From Eledone cirrhosa (Eukaryota), in the NCBI GenBank assembly GCA_964016885.1, contig OZ024751.1, positions 35,216,001 to 35,280,000 of the forward strand: a DNA stretch of 64,000 bases. Direction: 5' to 3'. This document shows, in pieces, positions 12,665 to 24,080 of this stretch. Position 1 is the first letter of the stretch. Every line of letters starts with the position of its first letter. Position numbers and translations under genes: made by a program. Under the pieces are notes generated by a model. That model saw only the letters and a program-made list of their open reading frames with translations, ran no database searches and had not been told where the DNA came from.

Positions 12665-14474
12665 TATCTATCTACCTGTCTGTCCATCTGGTCGCCAGAC
12701 TGCCTATCTATCTATCTACCTGACTGTCCATCTGGTCGCCAGACTGCCTATCTATCTATCTACCTGTCTGTCCATCTGGTCGCCAGACTGCCTATCTATC
12801 TACCTGTCTGTCCATCTGGTCGCCAGACTGCCTATCTATCTATCTACCTGACTGTCCATCTGGTCGCCAGACTGCCTATCTATCTATCTACCTGACTGTC
12901 CATCTGGTCGCCAGACTGCCTATCTATCTATCTACCTGTCCGTCCATCTGGTCGCCAGACTGCCTATCTATCTATCTACCTGACTGTCCATCTGGTCGCC
13001 AGACTGCCTATCTATCTATCTACCTGTCTGTCCATCTGGTCGCCAGACTGCCTATCTATCTACCTGTCTGTCCATCTGGTCGCCAGACTGCCTATCTATC
13101 TATCTACCTGTCTGTCCATCTGGTCGCCAGACTGCCTATCTATCTATCTACCTGTCCGTCCATCTGGTCGCCAGACTGCCTATCTATCTATCTACCTGTC
13201 TCTCCATCTGGTCGCCAGACTGCCTATCTATCTATCTACCTGTCTGTCCATCTGGTCGCCAGACTGCCTATCTATCTACCTGTCTGTCCATCTGGTCGCC
13301 AGACTGCCTATCTATCTATCTACCTGTCTGTCCATCTGGTCGCCAGACTGCCTATCTATCTATCTACCTGACTGTCCATCTGGTCGCCAGACTGCCTATC
13401 TATCTATCTACCTGTCTGTCCATCTGGTCGCCAGACTGCCTATCTATCTATCTACCTGTCTGTCCATCTGGTCGCCAGACTGCCTATCTATCTATCTACC
13501 TGTCTGTCCATCTGGTCGCCAGACTGCCTATCTATCTATCTACCTGTCTCTCCATCTGCCTATCTATCTATCTACCTGTCTGTCCATCTGGTCGCCAGAC
13601 TGCCTATCTATCTACCTGTCTGTCCATCTGGTCGCCAGACTGCCTATCTATCTATCTACCTGTCTCTCCATCTGGTCGCCAGACTGCCTATCTATCTATC
13701 TACCTGTCTCTCCATCTGGTCGCCAGACTGCCTATCTATCTATCTACCTGTCTCTCCATCTGGTCGCCAGACTGCCTATCTATCTACCTGTCTGTCCATC
13801 TGGTCGCCAGACTGCCTATCTATCTATCTACCTGTCTCTCCATCTGGTCGCCAGACTGCCTATCTATCTATCTACCTGTCTCTCCATCTGGTCGCCAGAC
13901 TGCCTATCTATCTATCTACCTGTCTCTCCATCTGGTCGCCAGACTGCCTATCTATCTATCTACCTGTCTCTCCATCTGGTCGCCAGACTGCCTATCTATC
14001 TATCTACCTGTCTCTCCATCTGGTCGCCAGACTGCCTATCTATCTATCTACCTGTCTCTCCATCTGCCTATCTATCTATCTACCTGTCTCTCCATCTGGT
14101 CGCCAGACTGCCTATCTATCTACCTGTCTGTCCATCTGGTCGCCAGACTGCCTATCTATCTATCTACCTGTCTCTCCATCTGGTCGCCAGACTGCCTATC
14201 TATCTATCTACCTGTCTCTCCATCTGGTCGCCAGACTGCCTATCTATCTATCTACCTGTCTCTCCATCTGGTCGCCAGACTGCCTATCTATCTATCTACC
14301 TGTCTGTCCATCTGGTCGCCAGACTGCCTATCTATCTATCTACCTGTCTCTCCATCTGGTCGCCAGACTGCCTATCTATCTATCTACCTGTCTCTCCATC
14401 TGGTCGCCAGACTGCCTATCTATCTACCTGTCTGTCCATCTGGTCGCCAGACTGCCTATCTATCTATCTACCTG
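12665..14474. repeat. 44/40-bp TATC-containing satellite (~42 units)
   Basis: Unit cctatctatctatctacctgtctgtccatctggtcgccagactg. Confidence 0.97.
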
Positions 14475-14727
14475 AGACTGTGAATCCTTCTTGGATTTCT
14501 TAACAGCAGCTGCGGCAGATTTCTTGGAAAGAAGGACGGTCTGGATATTTGCTAATACACCACCCTGGGCAATGGTGACACCCGACAATAGTTTATTCAA
14601 TTCTTCATCATTACGGATGGCAAGTTGCAAATGACGGGGGATGATTCGAGATTTTTTGTTGTCCCTTGCAGCATTGCCAGCCAACTCGAGCACCTCAGCA
14701 GCGAAATACTCCATCACTGCAGCCAAA
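14471..14727 (-). pseudogene. H2A: Histone H2A (H2A.X-like) C-terminal-half fragment
   Basis: [69 protein letters not shown]...SQSQ. N-terminal half absent; substitutions at conserved sites; extended tail ending SQ suggests H2A.X. Confidence 0.92.
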
Positions 14728-15700
14728 GACCGAGGGAAATGGGCGATTGGCACATCGAATGTGCTCAGGCGCTCACAGCCCTCTGGCAGGCGGACCCGGC
14801 GATCAGTGGAGACTCCATTTCGTCATTCTATAGAGGGTTGATCCGCAGCAAGTGCGACGACGCGCTCGGTGAAACTCTAGGCGTAGAGGAAGATGAACTG
14901 GCCAGTCTGTTCGGTAGGACCTTCCGCCCGGGACCGATGGACAACTTCCAAAAGTCCCTGGCTTGGCAGTGCTACCGAGGAGCTCTACCAGTTTGAGACA
15001 AGCTCTACAGACATGGGCGCCCGGGCAGGGACCCTGCAAAAAAGATCTGTCCGAGGTGCGTGCGAGACGAAGAAACCGTCGCGCACGCATTCATACACTG
15101 CCCGGGCGTCACTGACCTGTGGGGCTATGTAGAACGACTATTGTCGCGGGTGGGACCAATCCGGTTGACCACCGAGTCCATTGTCATGATCAAACCGCCA
15201 CCCTCCTTCAAAAACGAAGGAGAGGCGGTTTTCCTTTGTGTGATAGCTATGGCGAAAGAGGTTGTATGGTGGACAAGGTTGAAAGGGCTGAGGTCAGACA
15301 CCTTTCTCTCCGGCCAACAACCGATTCTTTTTTTCAAATACCACTTTGGAAGAAGAATCAGGATGGAGAGAGAGGTGCTGTACCCCAGCAAGTTTTATGA
15401 AAGGTGGGTGAAAGTGGCGAGAATGGCCCGACTGAATGGGCCTTCTCTCTATATCAGCCTGTAGGTTGAGGAAAAGAAGGAGGAGAGGAAAGGAGTACAA
15501 ACTCTTCGTACTCCTGGAGATGAGGGTTGCACATTTTTTTCGGGGGTATATGTTACCCATATAAACTGTCTCCCCCTATTGGGGAAAATCGACTAACTTT
15601 TTAAATTGCATTTGTGATAACATTTTACGTTTTTATTGTATGTAAACTTCCCCCTTTGTATGTGTCCCCTTCTTTTGTGCCCCTGTGGCTAATAAAGAAA
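14725..15700 (+). mobile_element. 5'-truncated L1/Tx1-type non-LTR retrotransposon (ORF2 C-terminal zinc knuckle + 3' UTR)
   Basis: LAWQCYRGALPV*DKLYRHG...ICPRCVRDEETVAHAFIHC (CCHC, zf-RVT-like), stop at 15464, 3' end gtggctAATAAAgaaa. One premature TGA at 14994-14996. Confidence 0.85.
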
Positions 15701-16092
15701 CATATCTATCTACCTGTCTGTCCATCTGGTCGCCAGATTGTCGGACTATTTCACTGTATATCTATCTATCCGACCGTATATATGTGTCTGCTTATCTACG
15801 TGTGTGTGTGAAATGTAGTCACTCAAACGTAAATGACCATAATATTAGTCGGTCACTATAAATAATAGTTGAGAAAAGCCAGGTAAAAATAACCCTGGGG
15901 ACGGGAGAAGAATTTAACAGGTGTCTGCGAGGAATCGAACCCTATATCTCTCGGATATCAGGTCAGCTCTCAAATATTATAGTGACCGACTACTATCATT
16001 TTAATCACTTACGTTGCGACTACTACCTTTCAGTCTTAAGTCAACCTGATGTTCACACACACACACACACATATGTATAAATATATATATAT

Positions 16093-16382
16093 AGAAAAAA
16101 AGATGAAATCGAAAATGCAATTGGAGTCTTATTTAAAAAATATATATATATATTTATTTGGTTCCTTTACTAGTTTCGCAGTTCTTCTGCTTTTCAAAAG
16201 TAGAGTTGAGATGGAGGGTCTGTGGTTTTTCCCACAGATGTGAGAAAAACCACAGACCCTCCATCTCAACTCTACTTTTGAAAAGCAGAAGAACTGCGAA
16301 ACCGGTAAAGGAACCAAATAAATATATATATTTTTTAAAAAAATAAGACTCCAGTTGCATTTTCGATTTCATCTTTTTTTCT
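16093..16382. repeat. ~290-bp near-perfect palindrome carrying hammerhead-like motifs on both arms
   Basis: Arms of about 143 bp centred near 16237. Motif TTGAAAA-GCAG-aagaa-CTGC-GAAA-CCGG-TA at 16278-16307 and its mirror at 16163-16202. Confidence 0.9.
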
Positions 16383-16442
16383 TTATACTTTCACTCGTGT
16401 AGGACACCTCGGTTATTTTTCATTTTGTAAAAAAAACCTCAC

Positions 16443-16475
<33 letters not shown>

Positions 16476-16859
16476 ACATAGATTTCACCTAGGCGTTACT
16501 CCGAGTTTCGCTACGAGTGCTTGTTATTAACTGCGTTATATATCGACACAGCTGTCTGTGTGTGTGTATATATATATACACACACACACACACATAAACG
16601 TGAGGAAGGTGTATTTGATACATCTCGCAGATAATGTGTATGTGTGAGTATGTACAATAAGTACATGTCGCTTCTTCAATGTAAGAATGTCAATAATATG
16701 TATGTGTATATATATATATATACAGACACACGTATATATAGCTGGAGAGAGAGAGGAGGGATGTCCAACAATATAGTGGGATTTGCTTCCAAAAGGGAAT
16801 TTCTTTATTCGGTTGTCACCCAATCTGACAACAAACGTTTATAACAAATATTATACACA

Positions 16860-17606
16860 AATATTGCATATATATATATTATACACAAATATATATATAT
16901 ATATATATACTACAGTATATATATATATATTACAGTATATATATATATATATATATATATTACAGTATATATATATATACTACAGTATATATATATATAC
17001 TACAGTATATATATATATATACTGTAGTATATATATATATATACTGTAGTATATATATATATACACTACAGTATATATATATATATACTGTAGTATATAT
17101 ATATACTGTAATATATATATATATATATACTGTAATATATATATATATATATATATACTGTATATATATACTACATATATATATACTACAGTATATATTT
17201 ATATATATATATATACTGTATATATATACTACATATATATATACTACAGTATATATTTATATATATATATATACTGTATATATATACTACATATATATAT
17301 ACTACAGTATATATTTATATATATACTGTATATATATACTACATATATATATACTACAGTATATATATATATACTACAGTATATATATATATATACTGTA
17401 GTATATATATATATATACTGTAGTATATATATATATATACTGTAGTATATATATATATATACTGTAGTATATATATATAAATATACTGTAGTATATATAT
17501 ATAAATATACTGTAGTATATATATATATACTGTAGTATATATATATAAATATACTGTAGTATATATATATATACTACAGTATATATATATATATATATAT
17601 ACTGTA

Positions 17607-17648
<42 letters not shown>

Positions 17649-17857
17649 ATATATATATATACTGTAGTATATATATATATACTACAGTATATATATATAT
17701 ACTACAGTATATATATATATATACTACAGTATATATATATATACTACAGTATATATATATATACTACAGTATATATATATATATACTACAGTATATATAT
17801 ATATACTACAGTATATATATATATATACTACAGTATATATATATATATATACTACAG
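16860..17857. repeat. (TA)n satellite punctuated by CTACAG/CTGTAG
   Basis: Seen directly. Confidence 0.95.
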
Positions 17858-18209
17858 GTATATCACGGACCTCTACAAACTATTATATGTAAGATATATA
17901 ATATACATGTAGGCCATTCTCTGTAGGCCTGGGATCGTTTCAAGATAAGCTATGATATAGTATGGATGTGGGCATTGAGCAATACTGCACCCTAAGACTT
18001 ATGATAGGGCTATGATTTGAGGGAGATTGGCAGTTATTTATAGTAGGTCGATTGACATTGCTAACTAAAGGAATCCATAGTTGACTCCTTTTCGTATATA
18101 TCAGTTGAGAAGGTGTTGGGTGTGTCATATTGGGAAGGAAAGAAAGGTGGAACTAATTACTTAACAGGTAGGCAATAACGACTGTCTTAGAGGTCTTTGT
18201 AAGGTAAAT

Positions 18210-20019
18210 TATCTATCTACCTGTCTGTCCATCTGGTCGCCAGACTGCCTATCTATCTATCTACCTGACTGTCCATCTGGTCGCCAGACTGCCTATCTAT
18301 CTATCTACCTGTCTGTCCATCTGGTCGCCAGACTGCCTATCTATCTACCTGTCTGTCCATCTGGTCGCCAGACTGCCTATCTATCTATCTACCTGACTGT
18401 CCATCTGGTCGCCAGACTGCCTATCTATCTATCTACCTGACTGTCCATCTGGTCGCCAGACTGCCTATCTATCTATCTACCTGTCCGTCCATCTGGTCGC
18501 CAGACTGCCTATCTATCTATCTACCTGACTGTCCATCTGGTCGCCAGACTGCCTATCTATCTATCTACCTGTCTGTCCATCTGGTCGCCAGACTGCCTAT
18601 CTATCTACCTGTCTGTCCATCTGGTCGCCAGACTGCCTATCTATCTATCTACCTGTCTGTCCATCTGGTCGCCAGACTGCCTATCTATCTATCTACCTGT
18701 CCGTCCATCTGGTCGCCAGACTGCCTATCTATCTATCTACCTGTCTCTCCATCTGGTCGCCAGACTGCCTATCTATCTATCTACCTGTCTGTCCATCTGG
18801 TCGCCAGACTGCCTATCTATCTACCTGTCTGTCCATCTGGTCGCCAGACTGCCTATCTATCTATCTACCTGTCTGTCCATCTGGTCGCCAGACTGCCTAT
18901 CTATCTATCTACCTGACTGTCCATCTGGTCGCCAGACTGCCTATCTATCTATCTACCTGTCTGTCCATCTGGTCGCCAGACTGCCTATCTATCTATCTAC
19001 CTGTCTGTCCATCTGGTCGCCAGACTGCCTATCTATCTATCTACCTGTCTGTCCATCTGGTCGCCAGACTGCCTATCTATCTATCTACCTGTCTCTCCAT
19101 CTGCCTATCTATCTATCTACCTGTCTGTCCATCTGGTCGCCAGACTGCCTATCTATCTACCTGTCTGTCCATCTGGTCGCCAGACTGCCTATCTATCTAT
19201 CTACCTGTCTCTCCATCTGGTCGCCAGACTGCCTATCTATCTATCTACCTGTCTCTCCATCTGGTCGCCAGACTGCCTATCTATCTATCTACCTGTCTCT
19301 CCATCTGGTCGCCAGACTGCCTATCTATCTACCTGTCTGTCCATCTGGTCGCCAGACTGCCTATCTATCTATCTACCTGTCTCTCCATCTGGTCGCCAGA
19401 CTGCCTATCTATCTATCTACCTGTCTCTCCATCTGGTCGCCAGACTGCCTATCTATCTATCTACCTGTCTCTCCATCTGGTCGCCAGACTGCCTATCTAT
19501 CTATCTACCTGTCTCTCCATCTGGTCGCCAGACTGCCTATCTATCTATCTACCTGTCTCTCCATCTGGTCGCCAGACTGCCTATCTATCTATCTACCTGT
19601 CTCTCCATCTGCCTATCTATCTATCTACCTGTCTCTCCATCTGGTCGCCAGACTGCCTATCTATCTACCTGTCTGTCCATCTGGTCGCCAGACTGCCTAT
19701 CTATCTATCTACCTGTCTCTCCATCTGGTCGCCAGACTGCCTATCTATCTATCTACCTGTCTCTCCATCTGGTCGCCAGACTGCCTATCTATCTATCTAC
19801 CTGTCTCTCCATCTGGTCGCCAGACTGCCTATCTATCTATCTACCTGTCTGTCCATCTGGTCGCCAGACTGCCTATCTATCTATCTACCTGTCTCTCCAT
19901 CTGGTCGCCAGACTGCCTATCTATCTATCTACCTGTCTCTCCATCTGGTCGCCAGACTGCCTATCTATCTACCTGTCTGTCCATCTGGTCGCCAGACTGC
20001 CTATCTATCTATCTACCTG
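18210..20019. repeat. 44/40-bp TATC satellite, duplicate copy
   Basis: Same as 12665-14474, offset 5545. Confidence 0.97.
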
Positions 20020-20272
20020 AGACTGTGAATCCTTCTTGGATTTCTTAACAGCAGCTGCGGCAGATTTCTTGGAAAGAAGGACGGTCTGGATATTTGCTAA
20101 TACACCACCCTGGGCAATGGTGACACCCGACAATAGTTTATTCAATTCTTCATCATTACGGATGGCAAGTTGCAAATGACGGGGGATGATTCGAGATTTT
20201 TTGTTGTCCCTTGCAGCATTGCCAGCCAACTCGAGCACCTCAGCAGCGAAATACTCCATCACTGCAGCCAAA
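20016..20272 (-). pseudogene. H2A: Histone H2A (H2A.X-like) fragment, duplicate copy
   Basis: Same translation as 14471-14727. Confidence 0.92.
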
Positions 20273-21245
20273 GACCGAGGGAAATGGGCGATTGGCACAT
20301 CGAATGTGCTCAGGCGCTCACAGCCCTCTGGCAGGCGGACCCGGCGATCAGTGGAGACTCCATTTCGTCATTCTATAGAGGGTTGATCCGCAGCAAGTGC
20401 GACGACGCGCTCGGTGAAACTCTAGGCGTAGAGGAAGATGAACTGGCCAGTCTGTTCGGTAGGACCTTCCGCCCGGGACCGATGGACAACTTCCAAAAGT
20501 CCCTGGCTTGGCAGTGCTACCGAGGAGCTCTACCAGTTTGAGACAAGCTCTACAGACATGGGCGCCCGGGCAGGGACCCTGCAAAAAAGATCTGTCCGAG
20601 GTGCGTGCGAGACGAAGAAACCGTCGCGCACGCATTCATACACTGCCCGGGCGTCACTGACCTGTGGGGCTATGTAGAACGACTATTGTCGCGGGTGGGA
20701 CCAATCCGGTTGACCACCGAGTCCATTGTCATGATCAAACCGCCACCCTCCTTCAAAAACGAAGGAGAGGCGGTTTTCCTTTGTGTGATAGCTATGGCGA
20801 AAGAGGTTGTATGGTGGACAAGGTTGAAAGGGCTGAGGTCAGACACCTTTCTCTCCGGCCAACAACCGATTCTTTTTTTCAAATACCACTTTGGAAGAAG
20901 AATCAGGATGGAGAGAGAGGTGCTGTACCCCAGCAAGTTTTATGAAAGGTGGGTGAAAGTGGCGAGAATGGCCCGACTGAATGGGCCTTCTCTCTATATC
21001 AGCCTGTAGGTTGAGGAAAAGAAGGAGGAGAGGAAAGGAGTACAAACTCTTCGTACTCCTGGAGATGAGGGTTGCACATTTTTTTCGGGGGTATATGTTA
21101 CCCATATAAACTGTCTCCCCCTATTGGGGAAAATCGACTAACTTTTTAAATTGCATTTGTGATAACATTTTACGTTTTTATTGTATGTAAACTTCCCCCT
21201 TTGTATGTGTCCCCTTCTTTTGTGCCCCTGTGGCTAATAAAGAAA
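20270..21245 (+). mobile_element. 5'-truncated L1/Tx1-type LINE, duplicate copy
   Basis: Same as 14725-15700. Confidence 0.85.
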
Positions 21246-21637
21246 CATATCTATCTACCTGTCTGTCCATCTGGTCGCCAGATTGTCGGACTATTTCACT
21301 GTATATCTATCTATCCGACCGTATATATGTGTCTGCTTATCTACGTGTGTGTGTGAAATGTAGTCACTCAAACGTAAATGACCATAATATTAGTCGGTCA
21401 CTATAAATAATAGTTGAGAAAAGCCAGGTAAAAATAACCCTGGGGACGGGAGAAGAATTTAACAGGTGTCTGCGAGGAATCGAACCCTATATCTCTCGGA
21501 TATCAGGTCAGCTCTCAAATATTATAGTGACCGACTACTATCATTTTAATCACTTACGTTGCGACTACTACCTTTCAGTCTTAAGTCAACCTGATGTTCA
21601 CACACACACACACACATATGTATAAATATATATATAT

Positions 21638-21927
21638 AGAAAAAAAGATGAAATCGAAAATGCAATTGGAGTCTTATTTAAAAAATATATATATATATTT
21701 ATTTGGTTCCTTTACTAGTTTCGCAGTTCTTCTGCTTTTCAAAAGTAGAGTTGAGATGGAGGGTCTGTGGTTTTTCCCACAGATGTGAGAAAAACCACAG
21801 ACCCTCCATCTCAACTCTACTTTTGAAAAGCAGAAGAACTGCGAAACCGGTAAAGGAACCAAATAAATATATATATTTTTTAAAAAAATAAGACTCCAGT
21901 TGCATTTTCGATTTCATCTTTTTTTCT
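21638..21927. repeat. 290-bp palindrome with hammerhead-like motifs, duplicate copy
   Basis: Same as 16093-16382. Confidence 0.9.
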
Positions 21928-21987
21928 TTATACTTTCACTCGTGTAGGACACCTCGGTTATTTTTCATTTTGTAAAAAAAACCTCAC

Positions 21988-22020
<33 letters not shown>

Positions 22021-22404
22021 ACATAGATTTCACCTAGGCGTTACTCCGAGTTTCGCTACGAGTGCTTGTTATTAACTGCGTTATATATCGACACAGCTGT
22101 CTGTGTGTGTGTATATATATATACACACACACACACACATAAACGTGAGGAAGGTGTATTTGATACATCTCGCAGATAATGTGTATGTGTGAGTATGTAC
22201 AATAAGTACATGTCGCTTCTTCAATGTAAGAATGTCAATAATATGTATGTGTATATATATATATATACAGACACACGTATATATAGCTGGAGAGAGAGAG
22301 GAGGGATGTCCAACAATATAGTGGGATTTGCTTCCAAAAGGGAATTTCTTTATTCGGTTGTCACCCAATCTGACAACAAACGTTTATAACAAATATTATA
22401 CACA

Positions 22405-23151
22405 AATATTGCATATATATATATTATACACAAATATATATATATATATATATACTACAGTATATATATATATATTACAGTATATATATATATATATATA
22501 TATATTACAGTATATATATATATACTACAGTATATATATATATACTACAGTATATATATATATATACTGTAGTATATATATATATATACTGTAGTATATA
22601 TATATATACACTACAGTATATATATATATATACTGTAGTATATATATATACTGTAATATATATATATATATATACTGTAATATATATATATATATATATA
22701 TACTGTATATATATACTACATATATATATACTACAGTATATATTTATATATATATATATACTGTATATATATACTACATATATATATACTACAGTATATA
22801 TTTATATATATATATATACTGTATATATATACTACATATATATATACTACAGTATATATTTATATATATACTGTATATATATACTACATATATATATACT
22901 ACAGTATATATATATATACTACAGTATATATATATATATACTGTAGTATATATATATATATACTGTAGTATATATATATATATACTGTAGTATATATATA
23001 TATATACTGTAGTATATATATATAAATATACTGTAGTATATATATATAAATATACTGTAGTATATATATATATACTGTAGTATATATATATAAATATACT
23101 GTAGTATATATATATATACTACAGTATATATATATATATATATATACTGTA

Positions 23152-23193
<42 letters not shown>

Positions 23194-24080
23194 ATATATA
23201 TATATACTGTAGTATATATATATATACTACAGTATATATATATATACTACAGTATATATATATATATACTACAGTATATATATATATACTACAGTATATA
23301 TATATATACTACAGTATATATATATATATACTACAGTATATATATATATACTACAGTATATATATATATATACTACAGTATATATATATATATATACTAC
23401 AGTATATATATATATATACTACAGTATATATATATATATACTACAGTATATATATATATATACTACAGTATATATATATATATACTACAGTATATATATA
23501 TATATACTACAGTATATATATATATATACTACAGTATATATATATATATATACTACAGTATATATATATATATACTACAGTATATATATATATATACTAC
23601 AGTATATATATATATATATACTACAGTATATATATATATATACTACAGTATATATATATATATATATACTACAGTATATATATATATATATATACTACAG
23701 TATATATATATATATATATACTACAGTATATATATATATATACTACAGTATATATATATATATACTACAGTATATATATATATATACTACAGTATATATA
23801 TATATATACTACAGTATATATATATATATACTACAGTATATATATATATATATATACTACAGTATATATATATATATACTACAGTATATATATATATATA
23901 TATACTACAGTATATATATATATATATACTACAGTATATATATATATATATACTACAGTATATATATATATATATACTACAGTATATATATATATATATA
24001 CTACACTATATATATATATATACTACACTATATATATATATATATATACTACACTATATGTATATATGTATATATTACAG
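22405..24080. repeat. (TA)n/CTACAG satellite, full-length copy
   Basis: Seen directly; extends about 0.65 kb beyond the duplicated segment. Confidence 0.95.

Follow-up and report, generated by a model that had tools for sequence, protein, structure and literature searches.

A backward H2A.X fragment joined to a Tx1-like LINE in the cephalopod Eledone cirrhosa: a probable case of twin priming in trans

How the 5' ends of LINE insertions are joined to their targets is not settled, and a piece of host mRNA caught backwards at such an end, with a readable parent gene and intact overlaps at its joints, would be a clean record of priming at the second target end. The locus described here raises the question of how a histone fragment came to lie, in reverse, between a minisatellite and a truncated LINE. 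It is found in a 64,000-nucleotide stretch of the Eledone cirrhosa genome (assembly GCA_964016885.1, contig OZ024751.1, positions 35,216,001 to 35,280,000), hereafter the window, which reads at this point, from left to right, 44-bp minisatellite, antisense H2A.X piece, the 3' end of a sense LINE, and a final minisatellite unit (Table 1). A preliminary description, made from the letters of the window alone, had placed an antisense H2A and a sense LINE inside a satellite, and all three pieces are indeed present where it put them. It also had the satellite resume after the LINE, which is right for one more unit, but the array stops there. The minisatellite pattern is unique to this locus, with 38 of its 38 exact genome matches falling inside the window.

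Table 1. Positions in the window of the chimera, its parts, its target and its tandem copy.
Feature	Position	Strand	Description
44-bp minisatellite, insertion target	12665–14474	+	42.3 copies, (TCTA)n in every unit
Apparent target-site duplication (TSD), left 14-bp copy	14461–14474	+	sequence TATCTATCTACCTG
Microhomology CCTG, 4 nt	14471–14474	+	common to target and H2A.X antisense (CAGG, codons Q135–E136)
H2A.X coding fragment	14471–14727	-	codons 51–135 of 137; Pfam Histone and Histone_H2A_C
Microhomology CAAA, 4 nt	14724–14727	+	common to histone piece and LINE
5'-truncated LINE	14724–15702	+	ORF2 C-terminus, 3' UTR, AATAAAGAAA and CA, without poly(A)
Apparent TSD, right 14-bp copy	15703–15716	+	sequence TATCTATCTACCTG; begins 2 nt past AATAAAGAAA
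Minisatellite, final partial unit	15703–15737	+	unrelated sequence afterwards
Tandem second copy of 12318–17857	17863–23407	+	5540 bp identical throughout; joined by a 5-nt filler
Second chimera copy	20016–21261		basis: tandem repeat of whole 5.5-kb unit

A genome search identified the parent of the histone piece. Over its 257 bp, the piece is identical at 251 positions to locus L003 (on G000:C17), a single-exon gene of 137 residues whose end reads TCT CAG GAA TAT TAA. The parent thus closes on SQEY, an instance of the C-terminal SQ(E/D)-hydrophobic motif by which H2A.X is recognized, and has the continuation SQ-E-Y/F that had been predicted for it. Only this gene and the two copies within the window match the piece at more than 85% in the genome, and a source locus elsewhere that already carried the same joint is rejected on that ground; the remaining H2A matches show 74–84% identity, with canonical H2A genes at about 80%. 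The piece lies entirely within the transcribed region and close to the mRNA 3' end: it breaks off one base into the E codon, 57 nt before the histone stem-loop of the parent (L003 1810–1855). Six bases differ between fragment and parent, four of which alter residues (L58F, P109A and P117S, the last by two base changes) and two of which are silent. The P>A, P>S and L>F changes noted in the preliminary description are therefore real, but its A>T is not a change, since the parent already has Thr. The fragment does not encode a complete H2A.X, as codons 1–50, EY and the 3' UTR are absent. It lacks both the N-terminus and EY and is altered at two prolines that the intact H2A genes compared retain; it is thus very likely dead, as had been supposed, and its product is probably without function.

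The LINE family is young and has many copies (2813 first-look candidates, with 98–99% for the best of them). Full-length copies of about 5.8 kb carry two ORFs with Exo_endo_phos (APE), RVT_1 and a zf-RVT zinc knuckle, and this two-ORF layout of APE, RT and C-terminal zinc knuckle is characteristic of Tx1 elements and is also found in the L1 clade. The copy at this locus is the terminal 0.98 kb, with a CCHC zinc knuckle, a premature stop at 14994–14996 and an ORF that ends at 15464. The 3' end of the family is AATAAAGAAA; as a rule CA or TA comes next, ahead of a tract of (TCTA)n or (TA)n. TATCT or TCTAT lies within 12 nt of the 3' end at 49 of 56 loci, a target preference of the Tx1 kind, and at none of the 56 does a poly(A) run follow directly. 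The '(ca)' that had been set outside the LINE is instead the family's own tail, with CA coming first after AATAAAGAAA at 37 of the 56 loci. Among named proteins, those closest to the LINE protein come from Argonauta (63%) and a cuttlefish (42%), in keeping with a cephalopod host; a match auto-named 'Transposon TX1 149 kDa protein' (30%) scores 281 bits versus 144 bits for human L1 ORF2p, a comparison between different databases that serves as a lead only. The ESM Atlas and cluster names gave no clade label for the protein. Judged from its sequence, the element fits a microsatellite-targeting Tx1 element of L1/Tx1 type. The window contains a further copy of this LINE 3' end at 48302–48669, which is older (73%) and likewise lies within a (TCTA)n/(TC)n tract.

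Both joints of the chimera are marked by short overlaps. At the left joint, as had been pointed out earlier, CCTG belongs to the minisatellite and to the histone alike. At the inner joint, which the preliminary description had left to be fixed near 14725–14728 by alignment of the LINE, matches to the LINE begin at 14724 and the histone match ends at 14727, so that CAAA is shared. Sister copies run on at this position into LINE sequence, not histone, and the possibility that the H2A piece is part of the LINE is thereby rejected. Under a uniform-base model, overlaps of four or more bases at the two joints together have a probability of about 2.4e-4.

The preliminary description also saw a TSD of about 14 bp around both pieces. 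TATCTATCTACCTG does flank them, and the duplication has the length class and offset of clean family TSDs, being 14 bp long and starting 2 nt after AATAAAGAAA; in the six sister copies with partly unique TSDs (L059, L065, L074, L076, L099 and L197) the repeat is 14–17 bp and starts 0–3 nt after AATAAAGAAA. However, most of the apparent TSD is generic, since at least 12 bases of the right flank are also present at 22 of 56 sister loci, and within a 44-bp array a 14-bp duplication looks the same as the loss of 44n-14 bases, leaving only CCTG as specific. In normal truncated copies the left TSD sits directly at the 5' end, whereas in the chimera it lies beyond the histone piece. The histone piece differs from its parent at 6 of 257 bases (2.3%), and the LINE piece from the most frequent letter among 32 sister copies in 10 of 976 columns (1.0%; Fisher p 0.12); on these figures, the ages of the two pieces appear compatible.

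Is capture or inversion a habit of this LINE family? We read 48 5' joints in a first set of sister copies (47 without the duplicate L035) and 16 in a second, 63 in all, a count that leaves out copies whose 5' end fell beyond the fetched stretch. An inverted LINE piece or a recognized foreign piece was seen at none of the 63 (upper 95% bound 4.6%); the flanks at L085, L090, L101 and L211 are without a TSD, and short captures there could be missed. Some sister copies have other irregularities: L085 and L086 contain internally rearranged pieces, with a 39-nt inverted piece in the L086 rearrangement (6923–7137), and L057 has an 11-nt foldback at its truncated 5' end. According to a report from 2009, 5' inversion is said to be confined to therian L1. 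In human and chimpanzee L1, 30.9% of copies are 5'-inverted, as given in the available part of Kojima 2010 (PMC2912911), and the absence of inversions and captures from our 63 joints, set against that figure, counts against routine twin priming in this family. Family sequence neither abuts nor interrupts histone sequence at 82 loci, nor at 52 further, partly overlapping ones. Targeting of histone genes is therefore rejected, and the chimera is a singleton. A search for further LINE copies with histone or inverted 5' additions had been suggested, and it yielded none in the 63 joints or the 82 and 52 histone loci; L161, L126 and L160, inspected as candidates for a second histone/Tx1 chimera, are not clean cases. 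Of the three observations that the preliminary description had itself named as speaking against it (a parent not of the SQ(E/D) type, the histone piece within the LINE consensus, and histone-gene targeting), none was made.

The preliminary description attached significance to the capture of a 'DNA-damage' histone. We consider this overstated, because fragments of H2A, H2B, H3 and H4 are also scattered in the genome (L120, L126, L143, L159, L160, L161, L249, L294 and others, without poly(A)). Among 19 dispersed fragments of H2A, H2B and H3 other than the chimera's, 12 break off 2–24 nt short of their parent's stem-loop, and the stem-loop is kept in none of the 19. For fragments with 92–100% identity, the distance to the stem-loop is 1 nt (L294), 2 nt (L249, L120, L126 and L161), 10 nt (L160), 12 nt (L023) or 15 nt (L159); in old copies the alignment may merely fade in the UTR before the stem-loop, and several other fragments end well within the coding region. 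Endings just before the mRNA stem-loop favour an RNA template, and histone mRNAs here are apparently copied with no poly(A) tail involved; since the parent is intronless, the piece itself does not prove that the chimera had an RNA template. The dispersed fragments that end at the stem-loop are likely to be tailless histone retrocopies in an invertebrate.

A clean TSD accompanies one of the 19 fragments, at L022, and most of the dispersed fragments may therefore be repair patches and not endonuclease-led insertions. L022 (1501–1581) is an 81-bp internal H2A piece, 97.5% identical to a canonical gene, enclosed by a perfect 20-bp direct repeat within a (TA)n tract and lacking a tail. Centres of long inverted repeats coincide with 2 of 30 histone fragments versus 0 of 250 control points (p 0.011), and histone fragments may patch breaks at palindrome centres. 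The two fragments are L294 1501–1578 and L123 1501–1690; L160 1946–2167 falls just outside the fixed criteria. A hammerhead motif suspected in L160 was absent by Rfam. At L020 1290–1707 (the same place as L125), the 3' parts of an H2B and an H2A are fused head-to-head, likely through deletion across a divergent gene pair. The H2B 3' fragment of L126 (1491–1648) has another sequence directly downstream, which we take to resemble a Penelope-type RT frame, and L126 is possibly a co-oriented chimera. At L161, a gap of about 60 bp containing an (AT)n tract separates an H3 3' fragment from a 3' piece, in reversed orientation, of a different and presumably RTE-like LINE family.

The 5.5-kb block at 12318–17857 recurs at 17863–23402, a repetition absent from the preliminary description; the two copies match throughout, including in the minisatellite and the AT-rich arrays. 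This block would either have been copied in tandem very recently, later than the chimera arose, or have been doubled in assembly; whether the duplication is real or not, both chimeras count as one event. In read-set X1, which may be the source sample, a 2.1-kb contig over the histone piece differs from it by one letter and shows the fragment's letters at 14526, 14528 and 14552, where organism B has those of the parent. The X1 contig may be the assembler's merge of gene and fragment, a hint that the fragment alleles exist in the reads. Among the contigs listed from four runs, none bridges either joint, and contig depth (11.8 for the gene contig, 15.3 for the right flank) is insufficient to judge the tandem copy. 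A (TTAGGG)n array of at least 11.5 kb (window 1–1492 plus L187 1–10000) lies at 35.2 Mb on a 53.9-Mb scaffold and is followed by minisatellite-rich sequence; this internal telomeric array is either a fusion site or a scaffold join. A long, near-perfect inverted repeat, MITE- or foldback-like, occupies about 16100–16385, with its centre near 16240.

We suggest that the chimera is probably the product of one insertion by twin priming in trans, in which the second target end would have primed reverse transcription on the H2A.X mRNA. The LINE endonuclease would have nicked the bottom strand in (TCTA)n, and the reverse transcriptase would have copied about 980 nt of the LINE RNA. A cut in the top strand about 14 nt away would then have given an end in CCTG-3', which could pair with CAGG of the H2A.X mRNA, 57 nt before the stem-loop, and prime a second cDNA that would have reached back to codon 51. 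The two cDNAs would finally have annealed via CAAA/TTTG, with host repair filling the gaps and the target being duplicated. We infer all four steps; the pieces, their orientation, both overlaps and the family's target and TSD rule are directly observed. The priming site CAGG has a mean unpaired probability of 0.46 in the H2A.X mRNA and is not predicted to be open, a value that is uninformative on accessibility. Twin priming in trans was also the mechanism put forward in the preliminary description, and orientation, geometry and microhomologies all fit it. The direction of synthesis and, with an intronless parent, the RNA template are left unproven, because the same joints would also be expected if the first cDNA had been extended on an antisense or DNA template.

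Several other routes could lead to the same arrangement. Host repair might have patched the gap at the LINE 5' end by microhomology-mediated templated insertion, from the H2A.X gene or from free histone cDNA, still within a single event but with no second target-primed reverse transcription by the LINE enzyme. This explanation predicts the same two microhomologies, and it suits a family without 5' inversions at 63 joints, the internal rearrangements in some sister copies (L085, L086), the lack of a TSD at most other histone fragments and the excess of such fragments at inverted-repeat centres. However, a DNA donor could have come from anywhere in 3 Gb, yet all of the piece is exon sequence from close to the mRNA 3' end, and an RNA source is suggested by the other histone fragments, which stop at the stem-loop. 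We therefore regard host repair as unlikely overall, although its free-cDNA form comes close to our best explanation. It is quite improbable that, in a co-oriented template switch, the LINE enzyme left its own RNA for an antisense H2A.X transcript; this would give the same orientation and a normal TSD, but antisense RNA is required, and no copy of the LINE family lies within 10 kb around the parent to drive it.

Tailless histone copies are common in this genome, copies of the LINE family accumulate and nest where (TCTA)n occurs, and nominally the histone piece has diverged further; all of this would suit a LINE copy and a tailless H2A.X retrocopy that arrived next to each other at different times. 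The inner joint, however, is a clean 4-base overlap and lacks the (TCTA)n or duplicated target that is nearly always present in 5'-truncated sisters, while the difference in divergence is not significant (p 0.12); we consider two events very improbable. An artefact of assembly could be suspected from a block that is doubled without any difference across unstable repeats, 13 kb from the internal telomeric array, but the piece differs from its parent at six bases and the X1 contig carries the fragment letters at 14526, 14528 and 14552, so that an artefact is extremely improbable. To return to twin priming in trans, a broader proposal would extend it beyond mammalian L1 to a cephalopod Tx1-type enzyme that is independent of poly(A) and targets microsatellites, within a genome-wide patching of free ends by histone cDNA, primed on stem-loop mRNAs, at LINE insertions and palindrome centres alike; this we put forward tentatively and regard as doubtful.

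The novelty claimed for the mechanism in the preliminary description was too great, since a model of twin priming in trans has already been published for mammalian L1 (PMC4476161, PMC13174262, both as excerpted). Antisense mRNA pieces are included in what has been proposed there, and only the host and the LINE clade look new. A limited literature search, covering titles and the openings of abstracts, found no Tx1 or invertebrate case of twin priming in trans, and in the excerpted text of PMC6895275 twin priming is mentioned for L1 alone. If the chimera is indeed a case from a Tx1-type element in an invertebrate, both twin priming in trans and tailless histone retrocopies would have a wider range. 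As a single dead insertion without sign of function, it adds an example and not a new system.

In their targets, the nearest parallels are the Tx1 elements Kibi, which inserts into (TC)n, and Koshi, which inserts into (TTC)n (Kojima 2015, PMC4494074, in part). They are likewise two-ORF APE and RT elements inserting into microsatellites; the LINE here targets (TCTA)n or (TA)n instead, and its placement in Tx1 is provisional. Tailless retropseudogenes, including 51 human histone copies, are described in the available portion of Noll et al. 2015 (PMC5322556). They share with our case the lack of a tail and, on our reading, internal priming on a non-polyadenylated histone mRNA; they stand alone and, among the vertebrates screened there, are given only for therian mammals and the anole, whereas the piece here comes from an invertebrate and is joined to a LINE. 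The 5'-inverted L1 copies, which arise by twin priming in cis, have 2–5 bp of microhomology at the outer joint and a short overlap at the inversion joint, as here, and their TSD lengths peak at 14–16 bp, in keeping with our apparent 14-bp duplication (PMC2912911, in part). In L1 the inverted part is the LINE itself; here it is host sequence, with no cis inversion in 63 family joints.

Other close parallels are chimeras of L1 with foreign RNA. For human L1, antisense 5S and tRNA chimeras and 2 of 17 mRNA/lncRNA chimeras have been ascribed to twin priming, in the part of Law and Burns 2026 available (PMC13174262), and as in our case the antisense piece sits at the LINE 5' end. The two antisense mRNA/lncRNA chimeras have no first exon and no splice features, according to the same excerpt. 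The chimeras of that study were placed in time by which mammals carry or lack them, whereas our case comes without an empty site and from another LINE clade and phylum. Inverted chimeras of U1, U2, U5 and U6 snRNA with L1 have likewise been ascribed to twin priming (Doucet et al. 2015, PMC4476161, as excerpted), and they share with the chimera a 3'-truncated foreign RNA opposite a 5'-truncated LINE, a single TSD (apparent in our case) and complementarity between RNA and target at the outer joint. Those chimeras are products of mammalian L1, and the captured sequence is an snRNA; here the LINE is a (TCTA)n-targeting element without poly(A) in a cephalopod host, and the captured sequence is a protein-coding histone that is additionally 5'-truncated.
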